Source: a virus. From it: a stretch of 64,000 nt of DNA. The stretch covers positions 54,746-118,745 of IMG/VR virus record IMGVR_UViG_3300022916_000006. One strand, written 5' to 3'. Below the pieces are notes generated by a model. That model was not told the DNA's origin. It did not search any database and saw nothing but the letters and a program-made list of their open reading frames with translations. Positions 54,497 to 64,000 of this stretch are shown piece by piece. Each line of letters starts with the position of its first letter. Within the stretch, counting starts at the first letter, position 1. The translations under genes and the position numbers were made by a program.

Positions 54497-54822
54497 GATT
54501 CTTATTATATATCATATTCTTTAATATTGCAATGGCATACGGACCATTTGTTCAACTTGATATTGTAGATTCTAATGGTGAAGTATATGTATCAGCACCG
54601 TCATATACATTCTTTGATATTGATGATAGTGATCGACGAATCATAATTGATGATAAATGGGATGGTGATGTTGATACTTTGTATTATGATTATGTGGATG
54701 TTGATGCTGAGAATAATGAATTCTATTATGTAGATGGTGAACCACGATTAATCATAGATAGAGTACATGAGATAATTTTAATTTTAGACATGTCATTTTC
54801 ATTGGTGTATCTTAAAAACTGA
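54493..54822 (+). CDS. Signal-peptide-bearing protein (GDxDT motif)
   Basis: Hydrophobic N-terminus; WDGDVDTLYY. Confidence 0.65.
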   Translation: MRFLLYIIFFNIAMAYGPFVQLDIVDSNGEVYVSAPSYTFFDIDDSDRRIIIDDKWDGDVDTLYYDYVDVDAENNEFYYVDGEPRLIIDRVHEIILILDMSFSLVYLKN

Positions 54823-57463: not shown

Positions 57464-57539
57464 GCAGTAGTAGTTCCAATTGGCTAGAACGTGAGATTTC
57501 CAATCTTGATGCTTATGGGTTCGAGTCCCATCTACTGCA
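57464..57539 (+). tRNA. trnG: tRNA-Gly(TCC)
   Basis: GCAGTAG/CTACTGC acceptor; TGAGA-TTTCCAA-TCTTG; ATGGG-TTCGAGT-CCCAT. Confidence 0.9.
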
Positions 57540-57543
57540 CACT

Positions 57544-57614
57544 GCGAATATAGTTCAGTGGAAGAACACAACGTTGCCAACGTTGGTATGAGAGTTCGAT
57601 TCTCTCTATTCGCT
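57544..57614 (+). tRNA. trnG: tRNA-Gly(GCC)
   Basis: GCGAATA/TATTCGC; CAACG-TTGCCAA-CGTTG; GAGAG-TTCGATT-CTCTC. Confidence 0.92.
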
Positions 57615-57725
57615 CAAATGAAAAAATAATTTAAAATAATTGTTTTTTTATATAGATTATATGTTATAGATTACATAACATAATTGAGATGCTATTTGAC
57701 ATTGTTGGTAACTGTTTTAATAATT

Positions 57726-57784
57726 GCTATGTTCATGAAACACGGTACAGTAGTTCGCTACACATCAAAAGTAGTGAACATAGC
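57726..57784 (+). ncRNA. Unassigned small structured RNA
   Basis: GCTATGTTCA/TGAACATAGC 10-bp closing stem. Confidence 0.45.
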
Positions 57785-57792
57785 ATAAGTTT

Positions 57793-57862
57793 GGCGATAT
57801 GTGATGGTTCACGTGAATGCTTCATACGTATTCATTGATCAGTTCGAAACTGGTTGTCGCTA
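57793..57862 (+). tRNA. Non-canonical tRNA with CAT anticodon (Met/Ile2-like)
   Basis: GGCGATA/TGTCGCT; 4-bp D stem with TGGT loop; 7-bp anticodon stem; ATCAG-TTCGAAA-CTGGT. Confidence 0.75.
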
Positions 57863-57864
57863 CT

Positions 57865-57950
57865 GTGTAGGTGGTTAGATTGGTAATACACTCGACTGTG
57901 AATCGAGTTGGAAGATGTTCCTCATGCGGGTTCAAATCCCGTCCTACACC
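57865..57950 (+). tRNA. trnH: tRNA-His(GTG) with long variable arm
   Basis: GTGTAGG/CCTACAC, C73; CTCGA-CTGTGAA-TCGAG; 18-nt variable region with a GGAA/TTCC stem. Confidence 0.85.
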
Positions 57951-57951
57951 C

Positions 57952-58039
57952 TATAGGATGGCGTGGTAGCCTGAGTGGAAAGATGTTTTGAGATAGGGAC
58001 CTCAAACTCATAGAAACTTGTAAGCCAATTACTCCTATA
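57952..58039 (+). ncRNA. Unassigned structured RNA between tRNA-His and tRNA-Tyr
   Basis: TATAGGA/TCCTATA closing stem; TTTGAG/CTCAAA and TGAG/CTCA inner stems. Confidence 0.45.
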
Positions 58040-58043
58040 TTTT

Positions 58044-58123
58044 GGATGTTTAGCCCGACTGGTAAGGGGGGAATCTGTAAAATTTCTTAACCATCAAGAT
58101 GAGTTCGAATCTCTCAACATCCA
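58044..58123 (+). tRNA. trnY: tRNA-Tyr(GTA)
   Basis: GGATGTT/AACATCC; GGAAT-CTGTAAA-ATTTC; long variable arm; bulged T stem. Confidence 0.8.
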
Positions 58124-58125
58124 CA

Positions 58126-58256
58126 AAGTGAAGTCTGATTAATAAATTGATTCTTTAATGCTTATTTGTAATATACTGAGAGTGTATTTATTTTATTGAA
58201 TTTTTATAATTACGCTGTATATTTAATTAAATAATGTATTTAACTAGACTTCACTT
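58126..58256. repeat. 131-bp element bounded by inverted repeats
   Basis: AAGTGAAGTCT (58126-58136) and AGACTTCACTT (58246-58256), extending to 15/17. Confidence 0.7.
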
Positions 58257-58261
58257 AATTT

Positions 58262-58332
58262 GGTTTGGTAGCTCAATGGTAGAGCGTGGGGCTGTTAACC
58301 TCGTGACTAAGGTTCGATTCCTTATCAAACCG
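58262..58332 (+). tRNA. trnN: tRNA-Asn(GTT)
   Basis: GGTTTGG/TCAAACC, G73; CTGTTAA loop; TAAGG-TTCGATT-CCTTA. Confidence 0.92.
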
Positions 58333-58336
58333 CAAT

Positions 58337-58408
58337 AGGAGTATGGTGTAACGGTAGCACACTGGACTTTGAATCCGGGAATGTCGAGTTCGATTCTCAC
58401 TACTTCTG
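58337..58408 (+). tRNA. trnQ: tRNA-Gln(TTG)
   Basis: AGGAGTA/TACTTCT; CTGGA-CTTTGAA-TCCGG; bulged T stem. Confidence 0.88.
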
Positions 58409-58439
58409 CAAAAATAAATAAAAATGATTTAAAAATTAT

Positions 58440-58514
58440 GGGCGGTTAGTATAAATGGACTAGTACACAAAACTTTCAATTTTGGGAATGCGAGTTCGAA
58501 TCTCGTACCGTCTA
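58440..58514 (+). tRNA. trnE: tRNA-Glu(TTC)
   Basis: GGGCGGT/ACCGTCT; CAAAA-CTTTCAA-TTTTG; GCGAG-TTCGAAT-CTCGT. Confidence 0.9.
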
Positions 58515-58526
58515 CAGACTTGGGAC

Positions 58527-58551
58527 AGGAGTTCGATTCTCCTATCGCCTA
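58527..58551 (+). pseudogene. Orphan tRNA 3' fragment (T arm plus acceptor strand)
   Basis: AGGAG-TTCGATT-CTCCT-ATCGCCT-A. Confidence 0.7.
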
Positions 58552-58571
58552 CAAAAAAAGGATATTACATT

Positions 58572-58847
58572 ATGAACATAGCACAAAAATTTATGGCTTA
58601 TGTCTTTAAATGGCAATATGTAAGATTGATACATGATTATCGTATGAATCAACCAGATTTAATTAGACGTGCGTATTCTATCGATGATAATTGGTTTGCT
58701 AATCCATATTTACCAAGTACAAGAGTACATTTAACATCTACTGGTACAGTATATAAAGGTAGATATATTATTGATTCTGTGAATTATGCTAGTTATATTG
58801 ATAGTTGGGAGCCAATTACAAAAGGTATGATTGCGTTGTATTTATGA
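58572..58847 (+). CDS. Hypothetical protein
   Basis: AAGGA RBS; start corrected (the ORF-track N-terminus overlaps the tRNA). Confidence 0.7.
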   Translation: MNIAQKFMAYVFKWQYVRLIHDYRMNQPDLIRRAYSIDDNWFANPYLPSTRVHLTSTGTVYKGRYIIDSVNYASYIDSWEPITKGMIALYL

Positions 58848-59773
58848 AATATTGTATTTACGATATAGTCAATGAGAAATATCATACCAAATATGGTAAA
58901 ATGTTTAATTATAAACATTGGCATGATGAATTGACGAGTGATGTACAATTGTTTGATTCATATGAAGATGCATTTGATCATTTAAATCATTGTGATATGG
59001 ATGATATAGTAACAATGATAAAAGAAGTAACAGATGCAGAAGCGGTGATAATGTTATTATGAAATATTATATATATGATAACAAAGTAAAATTATATTTT
59101 AAAGAAATTGGATATTATGAAGAAGGTGAATGGTCGTATGATTTATCAATACGTGTTAGATTCTTTAATTCTAACATTGAGGCTCGAAATTACATGTTTA
59201 CGTGGTTGGAATATAAATGGTACAAACATCTAGAAGTGAAATCAATATCAGATGCAGAATATATTGTAAGAATATTATGAAATATTATATGAAATATTAT
59301 ATATATGATCGAGATGATCCTGAGGAAGTATATTATAATAAGTGTGATATCGATGATCGTAATTCAATGTTCCCCTCAAGGTGGTCCAATAAAATTACAA
59401 GTGAACTTAGATTATTTGATTCATATGAAGATGCTTTTAACTACTCACAACAATGGTCTGATAATATATGGTATCGTGATTTAGAAATAAGATCAATATC
59501 AGAATCAGCGTTTGTGGCAACCATATTATGAAATATTATATAGTGGATAAGTATGAGGATGTAACTTCAATATATTATATAGGAAACCATCGTTGGTATT
59601 CTACATTAAGTAATAATATAAAATTATTTACAACTAGATATTATGCAAAAAAATATATTACATTGAATCTTAATGTTGTGCATCATATCTTTTATAATGG
59701 GATCATACATGGGAATGGTTGCTATGTGATAAAATCAATATCAGATGAAGAAGCTGTAATAACAAAATTATAA
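58844..59773 (+). other. MKYY family block inside the tRNA cluster (4 CDS: 58844-59062, 59059-59280, 59277-59531, 59528-59773)
   Basis: Shared motifs; tails read K(E/S)(V/I)(T/S)D(A/E)E. Confidence 0.9.
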
Positions 59774-59780
59774 AATAAAT

Positions 59781-59862
59781 GGTTCTGTGGTGGAACGTAT
59801 ACACGCTGTACTCAAAATGCAGTGATCGAAAGGTCGTGAGAGTTCAAATCTCTCCAGAACTA
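59781..59862 (+). tRNA. trnL: tRNA-Leu(CAA)
   Basis: GGTTCTG/CAGAACT; CTGTA-CTCAAAA-TGCAG; long variable arm. Confidence 0.88.
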
Positions 59863-59874
59863 CAATAAAGAATT

Positions 59875-59958
59875 GGTCCTGTGGTGGAATGGTAGACACA
59901 TCAGATTTAAAATCTGTGGCTCTTTATGGGCGTGAGAGTTCAAGTCTCTCCAGGACTA
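59875..59958 (+). tRNA. trnL: tRNA-Leu(TAA)
   Basis: GGTCCTG/CAGGACT; TTTAAAA loop; long variable arm. Confidence 0.9.
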
Positions 59959-60047
59959 CAAAAATAAAAAAAATAAATGTTTTTTTATATTAATAAAATG
60001 TAATATATTTACATAGTTAATTGATAACAAAAGTAAGGAAATCACAC

Positions 60048-60260
60048 ATGAGTAATTTATTTGATAGAATGTTTCCACCAGAGAATTATCCAAAATATAT
60101 GTTTAGATTGTTGAAAGATTTTGGTGATCATAAAGCTGATACTGAGTTTGATTGCTGTGGTGGAAATGTACGAGGTATATCAACTAAGAGTGGAGCAACG
60201 ATTAATTTTGATGATAGTGACTATTTTGAATACGTTGGAGAGGTTGAAAACAATGTCTAA
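60048..60260 (+). CDS. Hypothetical protein
   Basis: AAGGAAATCACACATG start. Confidence 0.7.
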   Translation: MSNLFDRMFPPENYPKYMFRLLKDFGDHKADTEFDCCGGNVRGISTKSGATINFDDSDYFEYVGEVENNV

Positions 60261-60486
60261 ACAAAATATCAAAAGATTTTTAGGAACAAGATTTCATGTT
60301 TCTAAACATGGTGAACGAGAACTACGTAAACATCAGTTGAATCCAATAAAAGCTATGCAACGTCTTACAGTTGAGTTAGCAAAAAATGATGATAGAGGTG
60401 GTGTTTATGTTGAATCAAATGGTAAGTTGTGGAGAAAGAATAAACACGTTTCTCCAGAAGAATTGTTTAATCAATTAGAAAAATAA
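60253..60486 (+). CDS. Hypothetical protein
   Basis: GAGG RBS; start corrected to MSKQNI. Confidence 0.7.
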   Translation: MSKQNIKRFLGTRFHVSKHGERELRKHQLNPIKAMQRLTVELAKNDDRGGVYVESNGKLWRKNKHVSPEELFNQLEK

Positions 60487-60498
60487 AGGATTAATGAT

Positions 60499-60699
60499 AT
60501 GAAAGTAACCATGCCACTAACAGTTGGTAGATTATTATGTGGTACAGTAAGAGACTTTTTAAATAAATGTAAGTTTCAAGGAATGGATATTACATTTATA
60601 GAATCTTCTGGATGGATTGAACGAGACTTTATTGTCAAAGGTTCTAGAAAAGATATTGAAACTATTAGAATTTCAATACAAAATTATATAAATGCTTAA
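60499..60699 (+). CDS. Hypothetical protein
   Basis: AAGGA RBS. Confidence 0.7.
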   Translation: MKVTMPLTVGRLLCGTVRDFLNKCKFQGMDITFIESSGWIERDFIVKGSRKDIETIRISIQNYINA

Positions 60700-60708
60700 A
60701 AAAACAAT

Positions 60709-60737
60709 GGGTGCGTAGCTCAGCTTGGTAGAGCATT
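60709..60737 (+). pseudogene. 5' half of split tRNA-Lys(TTT)
   Basis: GGGTGCG-TA-GCTC-AGCTTGGTA-GAGC-ATT; the acceptor strand pairs with 61771-61777. Confidence 0.85.
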
Positions 60738-60766
60738 ATTGTTTTTAGTTTTTTGAAATATTAAAA

Positions 60767-60838
60767 TGGTCCATAGGTTAACTGGTAAACCAAATGACTT
60801 TTAATCATTAATTCTCAGTTCGAGTCTGAGTGGGCCAA
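60767..60838 (+). tRNA. trnK: tRNA-Lys(TTT), intact, inside the insertion
   Basis: TGGTCCA/TGGGCCA; AATGA-CTTTTAA-TCATT; CTCAG-TTCGAGT-CTGAG. Confidence 0.9.
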
Positions 60839-60904
60839 CTTAAATAAATTTTTAATCAAAAAACATAGGTTCGACTATATTTATTAGTATAGGAGAATTT
60901 ATAA

Positions 60905-61732
60905 ATGAAGAAATGTAAAAAATGTGGTGATGAATTTGAACCACGAAAAGGATTGATAAGTTATTGTTCTTTGTCATGTAGAAACACAAGAGTACATTCA
61001 GAAGAAACTAAAAAGAAAATATCAGATACGAATTCTGGTAAATATTTTGGAACATATGCATTACCAAAAAAATGTAAATATTGTGAAAAAGTATTAGTAG
61101 ATTATTTACGCAAAGCAAATACTTGTAATGGTTGTAAACCGTATGTTCTTAATATAAAATTATTTGAAAAATTAAATATACATGAAACTGATTTAGGTAA
61201 AGCTAACATATTAGCATGTGATAAATTAATTGATTTATATTATTCTAACAATAAATCATTAAGTGAGATATATGAAGAATATAATATACGTGGTAATACC
61301 ATATATTATTTTTTAAAGAAAAACGGAATACCACTACGGACAGTACGTGATGGAGTTAGATTAGCTATTGCATCTGGAAAGATAATAACACCAGTAAATA
61401 AACAATATAAGTCAGGTATACATACGACATGGTTTAATAAAGATATCTTTATGCGTAGTTCATATGAATTTAGATTTGCAACACATTTAGATAAACAGAA
61501 AGTTTTTTACCAATATGAGAAACAATTTGAATATTACTTTGATGATTTATATAGAACATATAGAGCTGATTTTTTTATTCCAGATTGGAATCTTGTGGTT
61601 GAAACAAAAAGTAGATACTATTATGAAAAAGATAAAAAAAAGATTGGAATACAAAGGCAAGCAGTGTTAGATTCAGGGTATGAATTTGTATTGTTATTAG
61701 ATGAAGATGAAATTGATAATTTTAATAAATAA
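60905..61732 (+). CDS. Putative homing endonuclease: Zn fingers plus C-terminal PD-(D/E)XK domain
   Basis: CKKC...CSLSC, CKYC...CNGC; RSSYE...YRADF...VVETK; TATATTTAT motif and AGGAG RBS upstream. Confidence 0.8.
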   Translation: MKKCKKCGDEFEPRKGLISYCSLSCRNTRVHSEETKKKISDTNSGKYFGTYALPKKCKYCEKVLVDYLRKANTCNGCKPYVLNIKLFEKLNIHETDLGKANILACDKLIDLYYSNNKSLSEIYEEYNIRGNTIYYFLKKNGIPLRTVRDGVRLAIASGKIITPVNKQYKSGIHTTWFNKDIFMRSSYEFRFATHLDKQKVFYQYEKQFEYYFDDLYRTYRADFFIPDWNLVVETKSRYYYEKDKKKIGIQRQAVLDSGYEFVLLLDEDEIDNFNK

Positions 61733-61778
61733 GGTCTTTTAAACCATTGGTCGTCGGGTTCAAATCCCACCGCACCTA
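61733..61778 (+). pseudogene. 3' half of split tRNA-Lys(TTT)
   Basis: GGT-CTTTTAA-ACCAT-TGGTC-GTCGGG-TTCAAAT-CCCAC-CGCACCT-A begins immediately after the nuclease stop. Confidence 0.85.
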
Positions 61779-61783
61779 CAAAT

Positions 61784-62160
61784 ATGAAGTACTATATAAT
61801 ATCACATAGAGAAGATGATAAAGGTGATCCTCTAATATCTGATGCAATTGATTTAAATGAAGCAAAAGATTTATTAGCTGAAATTATGGATGCTTTTACT
61901 GGGAGTATAATTTTTCCAGATGCTACATCAGATGATTTTGAAATCGTTGATGAAAATGAAGCAGTGGCATATTTGTTATGAAATATGTTTTAAAATATAC
62001 TATAGATGGTGAATATGTAAGTAAAGATTGTGATACTTATGTATCTAAAATGAGAGATGCTATAGTATTTGATTTAAAAGAAGATGCTGAATCTGAAGCT
62101 GGTGTGACGGAGCGTATAATCGAAATGACAGATGCAGAATATATAGTTAAAATATTATGA
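61784..62160 (+). other. MKYY family pair (61784-61981, 61978-62160)
   Basis: Shared motifs. Confidence 0.85.
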
Positions 62161-62429
62161 AGAAGAAAACTGATATCAAGAAAATTCATATTAAATCCAA
62201 TGGTAGTTTTTTTATGAAATCGAAAGATATTTTCGATGATAAAGAGAAATCATTAAAACTTATTAAAAAATTACAAAAGAGTGTTGATCATTATATAGGA
62301 AAAACTAATAAATATAAATGTAAACATTGTAAAAAAATAGTAGAACGTGATAGTGATAAACAATGGATTAAAAGTTATTGTGATGTGACTGGAAAGAATG
62401 TACATTTGATATTGATAAAGAAAAAATAA
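62157..62429 (+). CDS. Hypothetical basic protein with CxxC...C
   Basis: ATGA overlap; CKHC...YCDVTG. Confidence 0.65.
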   Translation: MKKKTDIKKIHIKSNGSFFMKSKDIFDDKEKSLKLIKKLQKSVDHYIGKTNKYKCKHCKKIVERDSDKQWIKSYCDVTGKNVHLILIKKK

Positions 62430-62433
62430 AAAT

Positions 62434-62517
62434 GGCTGATTGGTGGAATTGGTATACACGCTGGCCTTAGGTCCCAGTATCCGAAAGGGTGTAAGAGTTC
62501 GAGTCTCTTATCAGCTA
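62434..62517 (+). tRNA. trnL: tRNA-Leu(TAG)
   Basis: GGCTGAT/ATCAGCT; CTTAGGT loop; long variable arm. Confidence 0.88.
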
Positions 62518-62530
62518 CATGAAAACATAT

Positions 62531-62606
62531 GCCTCAGTATCGCCTCGGATTTCTAACCCGTAGAAAGCGTAACGGACACATAAAGGTTCGAATCCTTTCT
62601 GGGGTA
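62531..62606 (+). tRNA. D-armless tRNA-like RNA with TCT (Arg) anticodon
   Basis: GCCTCAG/CTGGGGT; CGGA-TTTCTAA-CCCG; AAAGG-TTCGAAT-CCTTT; only about 7 nt where the D arm should be. Confidence 0.65.
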
Positions 62607-62628
62607 CAAGTAATTGCGAATTACGTAT

Positions 62629-62708
62629 ATAATAATATATTGTCTAGTAGTCAATTCCAATGACTTTAATATTTCCTATGGATGGAAAGCTAGATGATGT
62701 GTTATTAT
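62629..62708 (+). ncRNA. Unassigned three-way-junction RNA
   Basis: 19-bp closing helix with G-U pairs; AGTCA-ATTCCAA-TGACT and TTTCC-TATGGAT-GGAAA hairpins. Confidence 0.5.
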
Positions 62709-62729
62709 CTGAATAAAATAAAAAATTAT

Positions 62730-62763
62730 GCTGACATTACCTAAGCGGTCGACAGCAGGATTT
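62730..62763 (+). pseudogene. 5' half of a split tRNA (tentatively Thr TGT)
   Basis: GCTGACA acceptor strand perfectly complementary to 63921-63927; AAGCGGTCG D-loop-like segment; ends CAGGATTT. Confidence 0.75.
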
Positions 62764-62770
62764 ATATAAT

Positions 62771-62844
62771 GCTTCTATATGCTTAACTGGAAAAGCAACT
62801 GCCTTGTAAGCAGAAGTTCGGGGTTCGGTTCCTCGTAGAAGCCC
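62771..62844 (+). tRNA. trnT: tRNA-Thr(TGT), intact, inside the insertion
   Basis: GCTTCTA/TAGAAGC; CTGC-CTTGTAA-GCAG; CGGGG-TTCGGTT-CCTCG. Confidence 0.85.
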
Positions 62845-62926
62845 AACAAAAAAAAATTGAAAAAAGTAGTTCGATTTTCATTGTTGGCTTATATTTATAT
62901 ATATATATAAGAACGGAGAATTGAAT

Positions 62927-63877
62927 ATGTATAAATGTAAATATTGTAATAAAGAATGTAAAACGTATCAGTCGTTAGGTGGTCATACAGTCAAATGTAA
63001 TGATAATCCGAAAAAAGATGAGTATATAAAAAAAGCTAATAAAGCAAAAACACACGAACGAAATGAATATGAATTTGAGTGTAAAAAATGTAATAAAATA
63101 TATAGCGTAGAATTAACTGAAAATCAATTAAAGAAAAATCAATTTAAAAAGCACTGTAGCAGAGCGTGTGCGAATAGTAGAACCTGGTCAGATGAAGATA
63201 AAGTTAAAAAAAGTATAAGTAGTAAAACATCTAATTTTGTACGAGAATCACGAGAAAATAGATGGAAAGACTATAAAAAGAAAGTAAAAAAGGTAAGGGC
63301 TAGTTCATATATTAAGGTTAAAAATCCTAAAAAGCCTGGACCTATGCGAGCCGTGAGACGTATTGTATATTGTAAACATTGTAATGTTAAATTTGAAGTA
63401 TATAATAAATCAATTCAAAAGTTTTGTTCACAGCCATGTTCGAATGATTTTAGACGTGCAAATAAATCGTATAAAAAAATGATGAGTGAACAAATGAAAT
63501 TACAATATAAAAATGGTCGTAAAATATATGGTGGGCACGACAATGTTAAGTGGTATGAATATAATGGAATTAAAGTGCACGGTACGTGGGAATTGCGAAC
63601 TTGTAAAATTTTAGATAAGTGGAAACGAATTGGTAAAATTATAAATTGGGAATATGAATCAACACTACATAGATTTCAATATGTAAATGATACTGGACAA
63701 CATACATATATACCAGATTTTGCGATTTATAATGTTGATGGTACAGTTAGTATTCTTGAAATAAAGGGATTGAAGCGTGATGATGTTGATTTAAAAACAA
63801 AATCAACATTAAAAGCTGGATATCAAATTGAAATTTGGGATGATATTAAAACAATAAAAAGATATGAGTTGGAGTAA
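62927..63877 (+). CDS. Putative homing endonuclease: multiple Zn fingers plus C-terminal PD-(D/E)XK domain
   Basis: CKYC...H...C, CKKC...CSRAC, CKHC...CSQPC; GTWE...YIPDF...LEIKG; GGAG RBS (start corrected from TTG 62921). Confidence 0.8.
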   Translation: MYKCKYCNKECKTYQSLGGHTVKCNDNPKKDEYIKKANKAKTHERNEYEFECKKCNKIYSVELTENQLKKNQFKKHCSRACANSRTWSDEDKVKKSISSKTSNFVRESRENRWKDYKKKVKKVRASSYIKVKNPKKPGPMRAVRRIVYCKHCNVKFEVYNKSIQKFCSQPCSNDFRRANKSYKKMMSEQMKLQYKNGRKIYGGHDNVKWYEYNGIKVHGTWELRTCKILDKWKRIGKIINWEYESTLHRFQYVNDTGQHTYIPDFAIYNVDGTVSILEIKGLKRDDVDLKTKSTLKAGYQIEIWDDIKTIKRYELE

Positions 63878-63928
63878 TCAGGTGGATAGATAAGTTCTCC
63901 CACGTAGGTTCGAATCCTACTGTCAGCT
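63874..63928 (+). pseudogene. 3' half of a split tRNA (tentatively Thr TGT)
   Basis: GTAA-TCAGG-long variable arm-GTAGG-TTCGAAT-CCTAC-TGTCAGC-T. Confidence 0.8.
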
Positions 63929-64000
63929 CAAATAAAAAGGAAAAAAATGACTGATCTAAAAGAAAAACTAATAGCACTTGCTGTTGTAGTATTTTGTGTT

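Follow-up and report, generated by a model that had tools for sequence, protein, structure and literature searches.

The array of transfer RNA (tRNA) genes in the final 64 kb of the uncultured virus record IMGVR_UViG_3300022916_000006 (positions 54,746 to 118,745 of a record of 118,745 bp with 30% G+C; this whole 64,000-nt stretch is referred to below as the window) appears to contain two non-splicing homing-endonuclease cassettes, each splitting a resident tRNA gene of the same anticodon as the intact tRNA gene that it carries, a reading to which a probability of about 0.72 is assigned. The affected genes are tRNA-Lys(UUU) at locus A and tRNA-Thr(UGU) at locus B, and the unit found at both loci is composed of a short spacer, a complete tRNA gene (the cargo), a conserved upstream element and a nuclease gene. 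Both units are placed inside the same-anticodon tRNA on the 5' side of the anticodon arm (Lys UUU within UUU, Thr UGU within UGU), and with the ~25 anticodons of such arrays the chance of two such matches is, by our own estimate, ~(1/25)^2, or roughly 1 in 600. Cleavage of the intact allele, resistance of the cargo and functional compensation by it are what we infer from this arrangement. The components of the two loci are the following:

60709-60737, + strand: 5' remnant of the split tRNA-Lys(UUU), with the acceptor 5' strand (GGGTGCG), a perfect D arm and the first two bases of the anticodon stem
60738-60766, + strand: left spacer of cassette A, 29 nt, opening with ATT, a repeat of the last three bases of the 5' remnant
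60767-60839, + strand: cargo A, an intact tRNA-Lys(UUU) (Rfam 65.2 bits; ARAGORN 118.6)
60840-60904, + strand: upstream element and ribosome-binding site of the nuclease A gene, 65 nt, conserved in contigs L001, L002, L015 and L019 and at locus B
60905-61732, + strand: open reading frame (ORF) of nuclease A, 828 nt, 275 amino acids, the TAA stop directly abutting the 3' remnant
61733-61778, + strand: 3' remnant of the split tRNA-Lys(UUU), with the remaining anticodon arm including the whole loop, the variable loop, the T arm with an extra C, the acceptor 3' strand CGCACCT and the discriminator A
62730-62755, + strand: 5' remnant of the split tRNA-Thr(UGU), matching the intact allele of contig L029 without a difference up to 62755
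62756-63873, + strand: cassette B, 1118 nt, replacing 10 nt of the empty allele
62771-62844, + strand: cargo B, an intact class I tRNA-Thr(UGU) (Rfam 50.5 bits), its split counterpart being long-armed
62927-63877, + strand: nuclease B, ~316 amino acids from ATG 62927 (TTG 62921 is also open, giving 318 amino acids), with a C2H2-type zinc finger and a PD-(D/E)XK domain
63874-63928, + strand: 3' remnant of the split tRNA-Thr(UGU), beginning with anticodon base 35 and including the long variable arm, the T arm, the acceptor 3' strand and the discriminator

The history of insertion is most directly read at locus B (62730-63928), which has the layout of locus A with a left spacer of 15 nt before the cargo instead of 29 nt. 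The sequences GCTGACA (62730) and TGTCAGC (63921), the latter standing right after a perfect T arm, make a perfect acceptor stem from a distance of 1.2 kb, and the final base of the nuclease B gene together with its TAA stop coincides with bases 35-38 of the old anticodon loop. The empty allele was located by searching the viral contigs with a 24-nt query consisting of the T arm and acceptor of the split tRNA. Thus, viral contig L029 was found to carry an uninterrupted 92-nt tRNA-Thr(UGU) scoring 49.1 bits with Rfam, which, like the cargo tRNA-Lys and the cargo tRNA-Thr, is above the RF00005 gathering score of 29, and its flanks are 100% identical to those of the window over 127 nt on each side, the full extent of the overlap. 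At the place of the cassette L029 has 10 nt, GTCCTGACTT, running from the end of the D stem across the 5' strand of the anticodon stem and into the loop as far as anticodon base 34, and these 10 nt are absent from the window. Since the window allele cannot regenerate them, the intact gene is the ancestral state and not a deletion product; since the cargo tRNA and the nuclease gene are present or absent together, they arrived as one unit; and, the 10 nt being missing, the remnants cannot be spliced into a working tRNA. Presence and absence between near-identical genomes, by which free-standing homing endonucleases are recognised, is therefore seen at this locus, and on the sequences compared the insertion is recent. 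The initial annotation, made for the Lys locus from the letters of the window, had supposed an insertion that brings with it a whole tRNA of the same anticodon; this part of it is borne out by the recurrence of the design at locus B and by the joint entry of the unit seen against L029.

Two other interpretations of the remnants of locus B were considered and set aside. Their join scores higher with ARAGORN as a split tRNA-Ser(GGA) than as Thr (98.1 vs 89.8), an assignment overruled by the empty allele of L029, which is tRNA-Thr(UGU). The poor D stem was not accepted as a result of slow decay, as flanks 100% identical to the empty allele imply that the damage to the D stem came with the insertion. 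At the left junctions of both loci the insert opens with a copy of the final three bases of the 5' remnant (ATT ATT at 60735-60740, CAG CAG at 62753-62758), with no such three-base repeat at the right junctions; these repeats could be due to chance or be a footprint of the joining reaction. The window contig stops 72 nt past locus B (63929-64000) and the L029 contig stops ~100 nt before it (L029:13629-13729), and such assembly breaks beside a polymorphic cassette in both contigs are what the coexistence of the two alleles in the sampled populations would produce.

At locus A, the joining of 60737 to 61733 gives a 76-nt tRNA-Lys(UUU) with an ARAGORN score of 110.8, within the range of the genuine tRNAs of the array (105-119), so that the coordinates of the two halves and the acceptor pairing GGGTGCG/CGCACCT proposed at the outset hold. 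The joined sequence is 89% identical to the intact tRNA-Lys(UUU) of the unrelated viral contigs L008 and L009 and 82% identical to that of L010, while the 3' half by itself has 95% identity over 40 nt to these intact genes; this homology shows the pieces to be halves of one real tRNA gene and not a chance combination. The joined gene has two blemishes, namely a T27.T43 mismatch, with T at position 27 where the intact relatives have G, and an extra C, not present in L008-L010, in the T-stem 5' strand; this C may be a peculiarity of the lineage and is not strong evidence of decay. The break point, 28|29, is on the 5' side of the anticodon stem and outside the loop, and the join is clean, with 0-2 nt lost, a perfect 7-bp acceptor stem and a complete anticodon loop. 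The intact tRNA-Lys(UUU) between the halves was also annotated correctly as a different sequence, having 60% identity to the split one. The insert as a whole is 995 nt, 94 of which (29 + 65) belong neither to the tRNA nor to the ORF.

The upstream element of the nuclease A gene aligns with the regions that precede the related nuclease genes of locus B and of four other contigs. The motif TATATTTAT, to which a promoter role had been ascribed, does occur at 60876; the role itself found no support, since 14 sites in the window vs 10.2 expected make the motif not enriched, a combined motif is not enriched either, and a simple sigma-70 scan at 60876 gave no promoter, with no sigma-70-like site or terminator of note. 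What is conserved is the whole upstream element, the promoter being putative.

Nuclease A, described initially as a zinc-finger/PD-(D/E)XK nuclease with its stop codon against the 3' half, has indeed a TAA adjoining 61733 and intact catalytic residues. Its domains are an N-terminal four-cysteine zinc ribbon, a NUMOD3 motif (marginal, 20.7 bits at a cut-off of 20.4), a helix-turn-helix-like middle part and a C-terminal PD-(D/E)XK domain similar to T7 endonuclease I. In single-sequence Pfam searches the matches to PF05367 Phage_endo_I (19.9 bits, cut-off 29.1) and DUF7487 (25.9 bits, cut-off 27) were both below threshold. However, the profile of 13 homologues, built of window proteins, two database proteins and metagenomic loci, matched the T7 endonuclease I structures (1m0d/2pfj) at E = 4.9e-13, with the catalytic Glu, Asp and Glu-x-Lys in register, and the residues E188, D222, E233 and K235 are invariant in all 13, nuclease B included. 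By these matches nuclease A is a distant relative of Phage_endo_I that is recognised at the profile level only. The AlphaFold2 model of nuclease A has a mean predicted local distance difference test (pLDDT) score of 81.5, exceeding 90 over the nuclease core (residues 170-270); a Foldseek search with this predicted model placed the catalytic domain of I-Bth0305I first (E 0.011, probability 1.0), followed by TnsA and Vsr, none of the matches reaching E <= 0.001. Nuclease B shares the catalytic residues and 23% identity with nuclease A in the nuclease domain. The modular DNA-binding motifs typical of phage homing enzymes are present in the form of NUMOD3, the invariant zinc-ribbon cysteines and an N-terminal module that is also borne by HNH nucleases, and no GIY-YIG family is found among the Pfam and PHROG matches of the nucleases. 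The family has 26,967 representatives at E <= 0.001. A protein identical to nuclease A is present on 19 contigs; no relatives of nuclease B were obtained by the pattern search of the viral contigs, the family was not found in the genome contigs, and further homologues are absent from L029 and from the rest of the record.

The relatives of nuclease A in other phages are repeatedly associated with tRNA genes. Contig L019 encodes a full-length homologue (38% identity) that starts 72 nt past a tRNA-Lys(UUU) 75% identical to the split one, and L015 encodes an HNH nuclease that has 77% identity to nuclease A over its first 30 residues and follows, with the shared upstream element, a Lys(UUU)-like tRNA; in both the nuclease gene is free-standing just 3' of the Lys(UUU) tRNA, with no split tRNA around it. 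In contigs L001-L004 the HNH nuclease gene (L001:3915-4678), with a zinc ribbon 63% identical and the same upstream element, stands within the D loop of tRNA-Lys(UUU), a 23-nt duplicate of the tRNA 5' end being found upstream and the intact tRNA starting inside the last codons of the nuclease gene. Among other homologues, that of L018 ends inside a tRNA-Leu, and that of L020 abuts a tRNA-Tyr. The sequences collected point to a family of modular nucleases resident in phage tRNA arrays, with one branch associated with tRNA-Lys(UUU), as expected if the zinc-ribbon module recognises the tRNA-Lys(UUU) gene. The homologue of L019 (L019:2998-3840) has several in-frame TGA codons, one of them at the conserved Trp of the family, from which it follows that this contig probably reads TGA as Trp (code 4-like).

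The array itself consists of 12 tRNA genes predicted by ARAGORN in the record, all on the + strand and within 57464-62844 of the window (scores 105-119), and the cargo tRNAs Lys(UUU) and Thr(UGU) are each the sole carrier of the anticodon in the 118.7-kb record. Among GenBank phages no near match to the window was found, only distant protein matches to Lak phages and matches at the level of tRNAs. Directly 3' of tRNA-Glu, at 58516-58553, there is an orphan 3' tRNA fragment with a good T arm and acceptor 3' strand; neither a matching 5' acceptor strand nearby nor a nuclease gene at this place was found, and the fragment is probably debris from an older rearrangement. Degenerate tRNA-like stretches occur at 62531-62606 (27.3 bits, slightly below the Rfam tRNA threshold) and at ~57791-57862, where the acceptor and T-arm-like pairing was judged by eye only. 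Several class I tRNAs of the lineage, such as His (57865-57951), Thr (L029:13537-13628), and Asn and Gln of L011, have variable arms as long as 17-23 nt, an unusual length for these isotypes. Two members of a ~100-copy small-protein family, MKYY, are encoded at 61784-62160, beginning 5 bp past the Lys 3' remnant.

A mechanism that would account for both loci can be proposed as follows. The nuclease would be made during infection and, where a co-infecting relative still has the tRNA gene uninterrupted, would cut that gene close to the 5' strand of its anticodon stem. The break would then be repaired from the cassette-bearing genome, the tRNA remnants and the sequences beyond them serving as homology arms, so that the tRNA and the nuclease gene are copied in together. 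The cargo tRNA would escape cutting, as it differs from the target throughout the D and anticodon arms, and would take over decoding, while the two remnants would remain as dead DNA. For the founding insertion, the probable event is the capture, by an illegitimate or very-short-homology join, of a fragment of the type 'tRNA + downstream nuclease', for which the free-standing arrangement in L019 and L015 may serve as a model and with which the losses of 10 nt at locus B and 0-2 nt at locus A would be consistent.

Several observations weigh against the two-cassette reading. The CheckV completeness of the record is ~62%, and therefore further Lys or Thr tRNAs may exist. Relatives with the uninterrupted tRNA, named by the initial annotation as a check, were found for the Thr locus (L029) and not for the Lys locus: an exact match of the 27-nt 5' half of the split tRNA-Lys is absent from the viral contigs and the genome contigs, a 19-mer of the 3' half retrieved only unrelated phages with intact Lys tRNAs, in the search with the neighbouring gene the relatives L038 and L039 were not syntenic, L011 and L012 are too distant, and the L029 contig, ending ~100 nt before locus B, does not cover the site. 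The rejoined tRNA-Lys is nearly perfect, so that its sequence alone is no proof of its being dead. At locus B, 10 nt were removed at the join, there is no flanking co-conversion over 127 nt, and this join fits a fresh illegitimate insertion equally with classical homing. The nuclease family is very large and its members need not all be homing enzymes, T7 endonuclease I itself being a junction resolvase.

The same history of insertion would also result if an ordinary free-standing homing endonuclease, residing beside a resistant allele of its own target gene, carried the tRNA next to it into the new site, through co-conversion or fragment capture, in the way T4 SegB does with the tRNA genes around it; this we consider unlikely, without being negligible. 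The anticodon match could then mean no more than that a homing endonuclease moves together with a resistant allele of its target that lies next to it, and no replacement would be needed, phage tRNAs being dispensable. The free-standing nucleases of L019 and L015 downstream of unsplit Lys(UUU) tRNAs agree with this, as does the tRNA debris without nuclease elsewhere in the array (58516-58553 and the degenerate stretches), and SegB is known to spread surrounding tRNA genes and to form repeat units of a tRNA plus segB (PMC2330249; PMC13096335). However, the ends of the cassettes are very tight, the cargo being preceded by a spacer of 29 or 15 nt and the stop codon touching or entering the target, each of the two has landed in an isoacceptor, and the cargo is left as the only known tRNA of its anticodon, the outcome expected from selection for retained decoding. 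Passenger transport and compensation cannot be separated by sequence alone.

Another explanation, doubtful at best, is that the cassettes spread tRNA variants which escape host anticodon nucleases, the endonuclease being the drive, as SegB is for tRNA-Tyr against Septu. The anticodon nuclease AriB of the PARIS system has Lys(UUU) and Thr(UGU) as its two prime targets, and its cleavage determinant was localised to tRNA positions 36-41, with a change at position 39 abolishing the cleavage of E. coli tRNA-Lys (PMC12409363). Both cargo anticodons coincide with these targets, the SegB precedent is at hand, and in Thr positions 36-41 pass from UAAUCA of the old allele (L029), the cleavable type, to UAAGCA of the cargo, altered at position 39. 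In Lys, however, the direction is the wrong one, from UAAACC of the split gene (resistant, phage-T5 type) to UAAUCA of the cargo (cleavable, E. coli type), and two anticodons are a small sample; the explanation, with this mixed outcome against the published determinants, is speculative.

That the 995-nt insert is an unusual intron or the locus a split tRNA, the halves being rejoined at the RNA level to give a second functional tRNA-Lys (for instance, after host processing at the embedded tRNA and ligation), can hardly be right in spite of the clean join at locus A with its 0-2 nt lost, perfect 7-bp acceptor stem and whole anticodon loop: the Rfam search of the insert gave no intron family, group I or group II, at E <= 10 and nothing but tRNA with a meaningful score, in accord with the absence of intron features stated initially; the 29 + 65 nt that are neither coding nor tRNA leave no room for a ribozyme core; the insert has A as its last base, not the terminal G of group I introns, and its ends ATTGT...ATAA are not the GUGYG...AY of group II introns, the ORF being a nuclease and not a reverse transcriptase; the junction sits in the anticodon stem and not in the loop; co-folding of the ends gives the acceptor stem only, neither extended pairing nor a bulge-helix-bulge being formed; RtcB and RNA-ligase families were not found in the record, which is 62% complete and for which the PF09511 control was uninformative; and the sister locus B, being without 10 nt of its tRNA, is not restorable by splicing.

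Among the known systems, SegB of phages T4 and T6 is the closest. The cuts of SegB fall within tRNA genes, and its inheritance, jointly with that of the tRNA genes next to it, is nearly 100% (PMC2330249). As in the cassettes described here, the nuclease gene lies in a phage tRNA array with a tRNA and the nuclease gene forming one recombination unit (PMC2330249; PMC13096335). Unlike these cassettes, SegB belongs to the GIY-YIG nucleases, recognises a shared T-arm motif and stands between tRNA genes without splitting any, whereas the nucleases of loci A and B are of the PD-(D/E)XK type, show no detectable GIY-YIG domain that would make them members of the SegB family, and lie inside a same-anticodon tRNA near the anticodon arm. 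The 'different strategy' spoken of in the initial annotation was therefore overstated, as T4 SegB already cuts tRNA genes and spreads the neighbouring ones (PMC2330249, PMC13096335). In the literature search no description was found of a tRNA gene split by a cassette of a nuclease plus an isoacceptor. The cutting of tRNA genes by homing endonucleases and the spread of the adjacent tRNAs are already known, and the cassette-split tRNA is a new variation on this theme.

A PD-(D/E)XK homing endonuclease, I-Ssp6803I, is encoded in the group I intron of a cyanobacterial tRNA-fMet. Its fold and the interruption of a tRNA gene in the anticodon region are shared with the cassettes; however, the self-splicing intron mends its tRNA at the RNA level, while here there is no ribozyme and function would rest on the supply of another complete tRNA gene. 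A review of bacterial tRNA introns is available (PMC3984707). The 'fractured genes' and I-Bth0305I (Dassa et al. 2009, PMC2677866) are similar in that the host gene is split, with no intron involved, by a free-standing endonuclease gene. The catalytic domain of I-Bth0305I is also the top structural match of the predicted nuclease A model. The Aeh1 arrangement nrdA-a/mobE/nrdA-b is a gene in pieces split by a free-standing endonuclease gene. In contrast to the loci described here, where the broken gene would be abandoned and a spare one supplied, these are protein genes rescued as protein, by split inteins or by subunit assembly. The HNH cassette of L001-L004 has in common with locus A the zinc ribbon (63% identity), the upstream element and the target tRNA-Lys(UUU), and differs from it by the HNH domain, the insertion in the D loop and the restoration of the tRNA by the 23-nt 5' duplicate, with no whole spare tRNA. 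Integrative elements that have tRNA genes as their targets make these whole again by a duplication of the 3' part. They are comparable as mobile elements that enter a tRNA gene whose function is kept, but they use an integrase and an attP copy of a part of the same tRNA, whereas the cassettes lack an integrase, leave the remnants incomplete and bring a different full-length isoacceptor with them.

A wider generalisation, according to which there is a general undescribed class of 'bring-your-own-tRNA' homing cassettes, with nucleases of unrelated folds that invade tRNA genes without a ribozyme, each carrying a cut-resistant isoacceptor and also driving the turnover of the Lys UUU and Thr UGU tRNAs read by anticodon nucleases such as PARIS AriB, is rather improbable.

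To our knowledge, homing endonucleases are thought to enter functional genes only under the cover of an intron or intein, and otherwise to stay intergenic. The loci described here would show a third route for RNA genes, in which the resident gene is broken and a working copy is brought that the nuclease presumably cannot cut. The empty allele of L029 and the cargo tRNA-Thr constitute a natural substrate pair for cleavage and homing tests, and the large family of nucleases similar to T7 endonuclease I, with thousands of metagenomic members, joins the candidate homing enzymes. The zinc ribbon common to the PD-(D/E)XK and HNH nucleases beside tRNA-Lys(UUU) is a candidate portable DNA-recognition domain. 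Such insertions would also help to explain the mosaic, fragment-littered tRNA arrays of phages.

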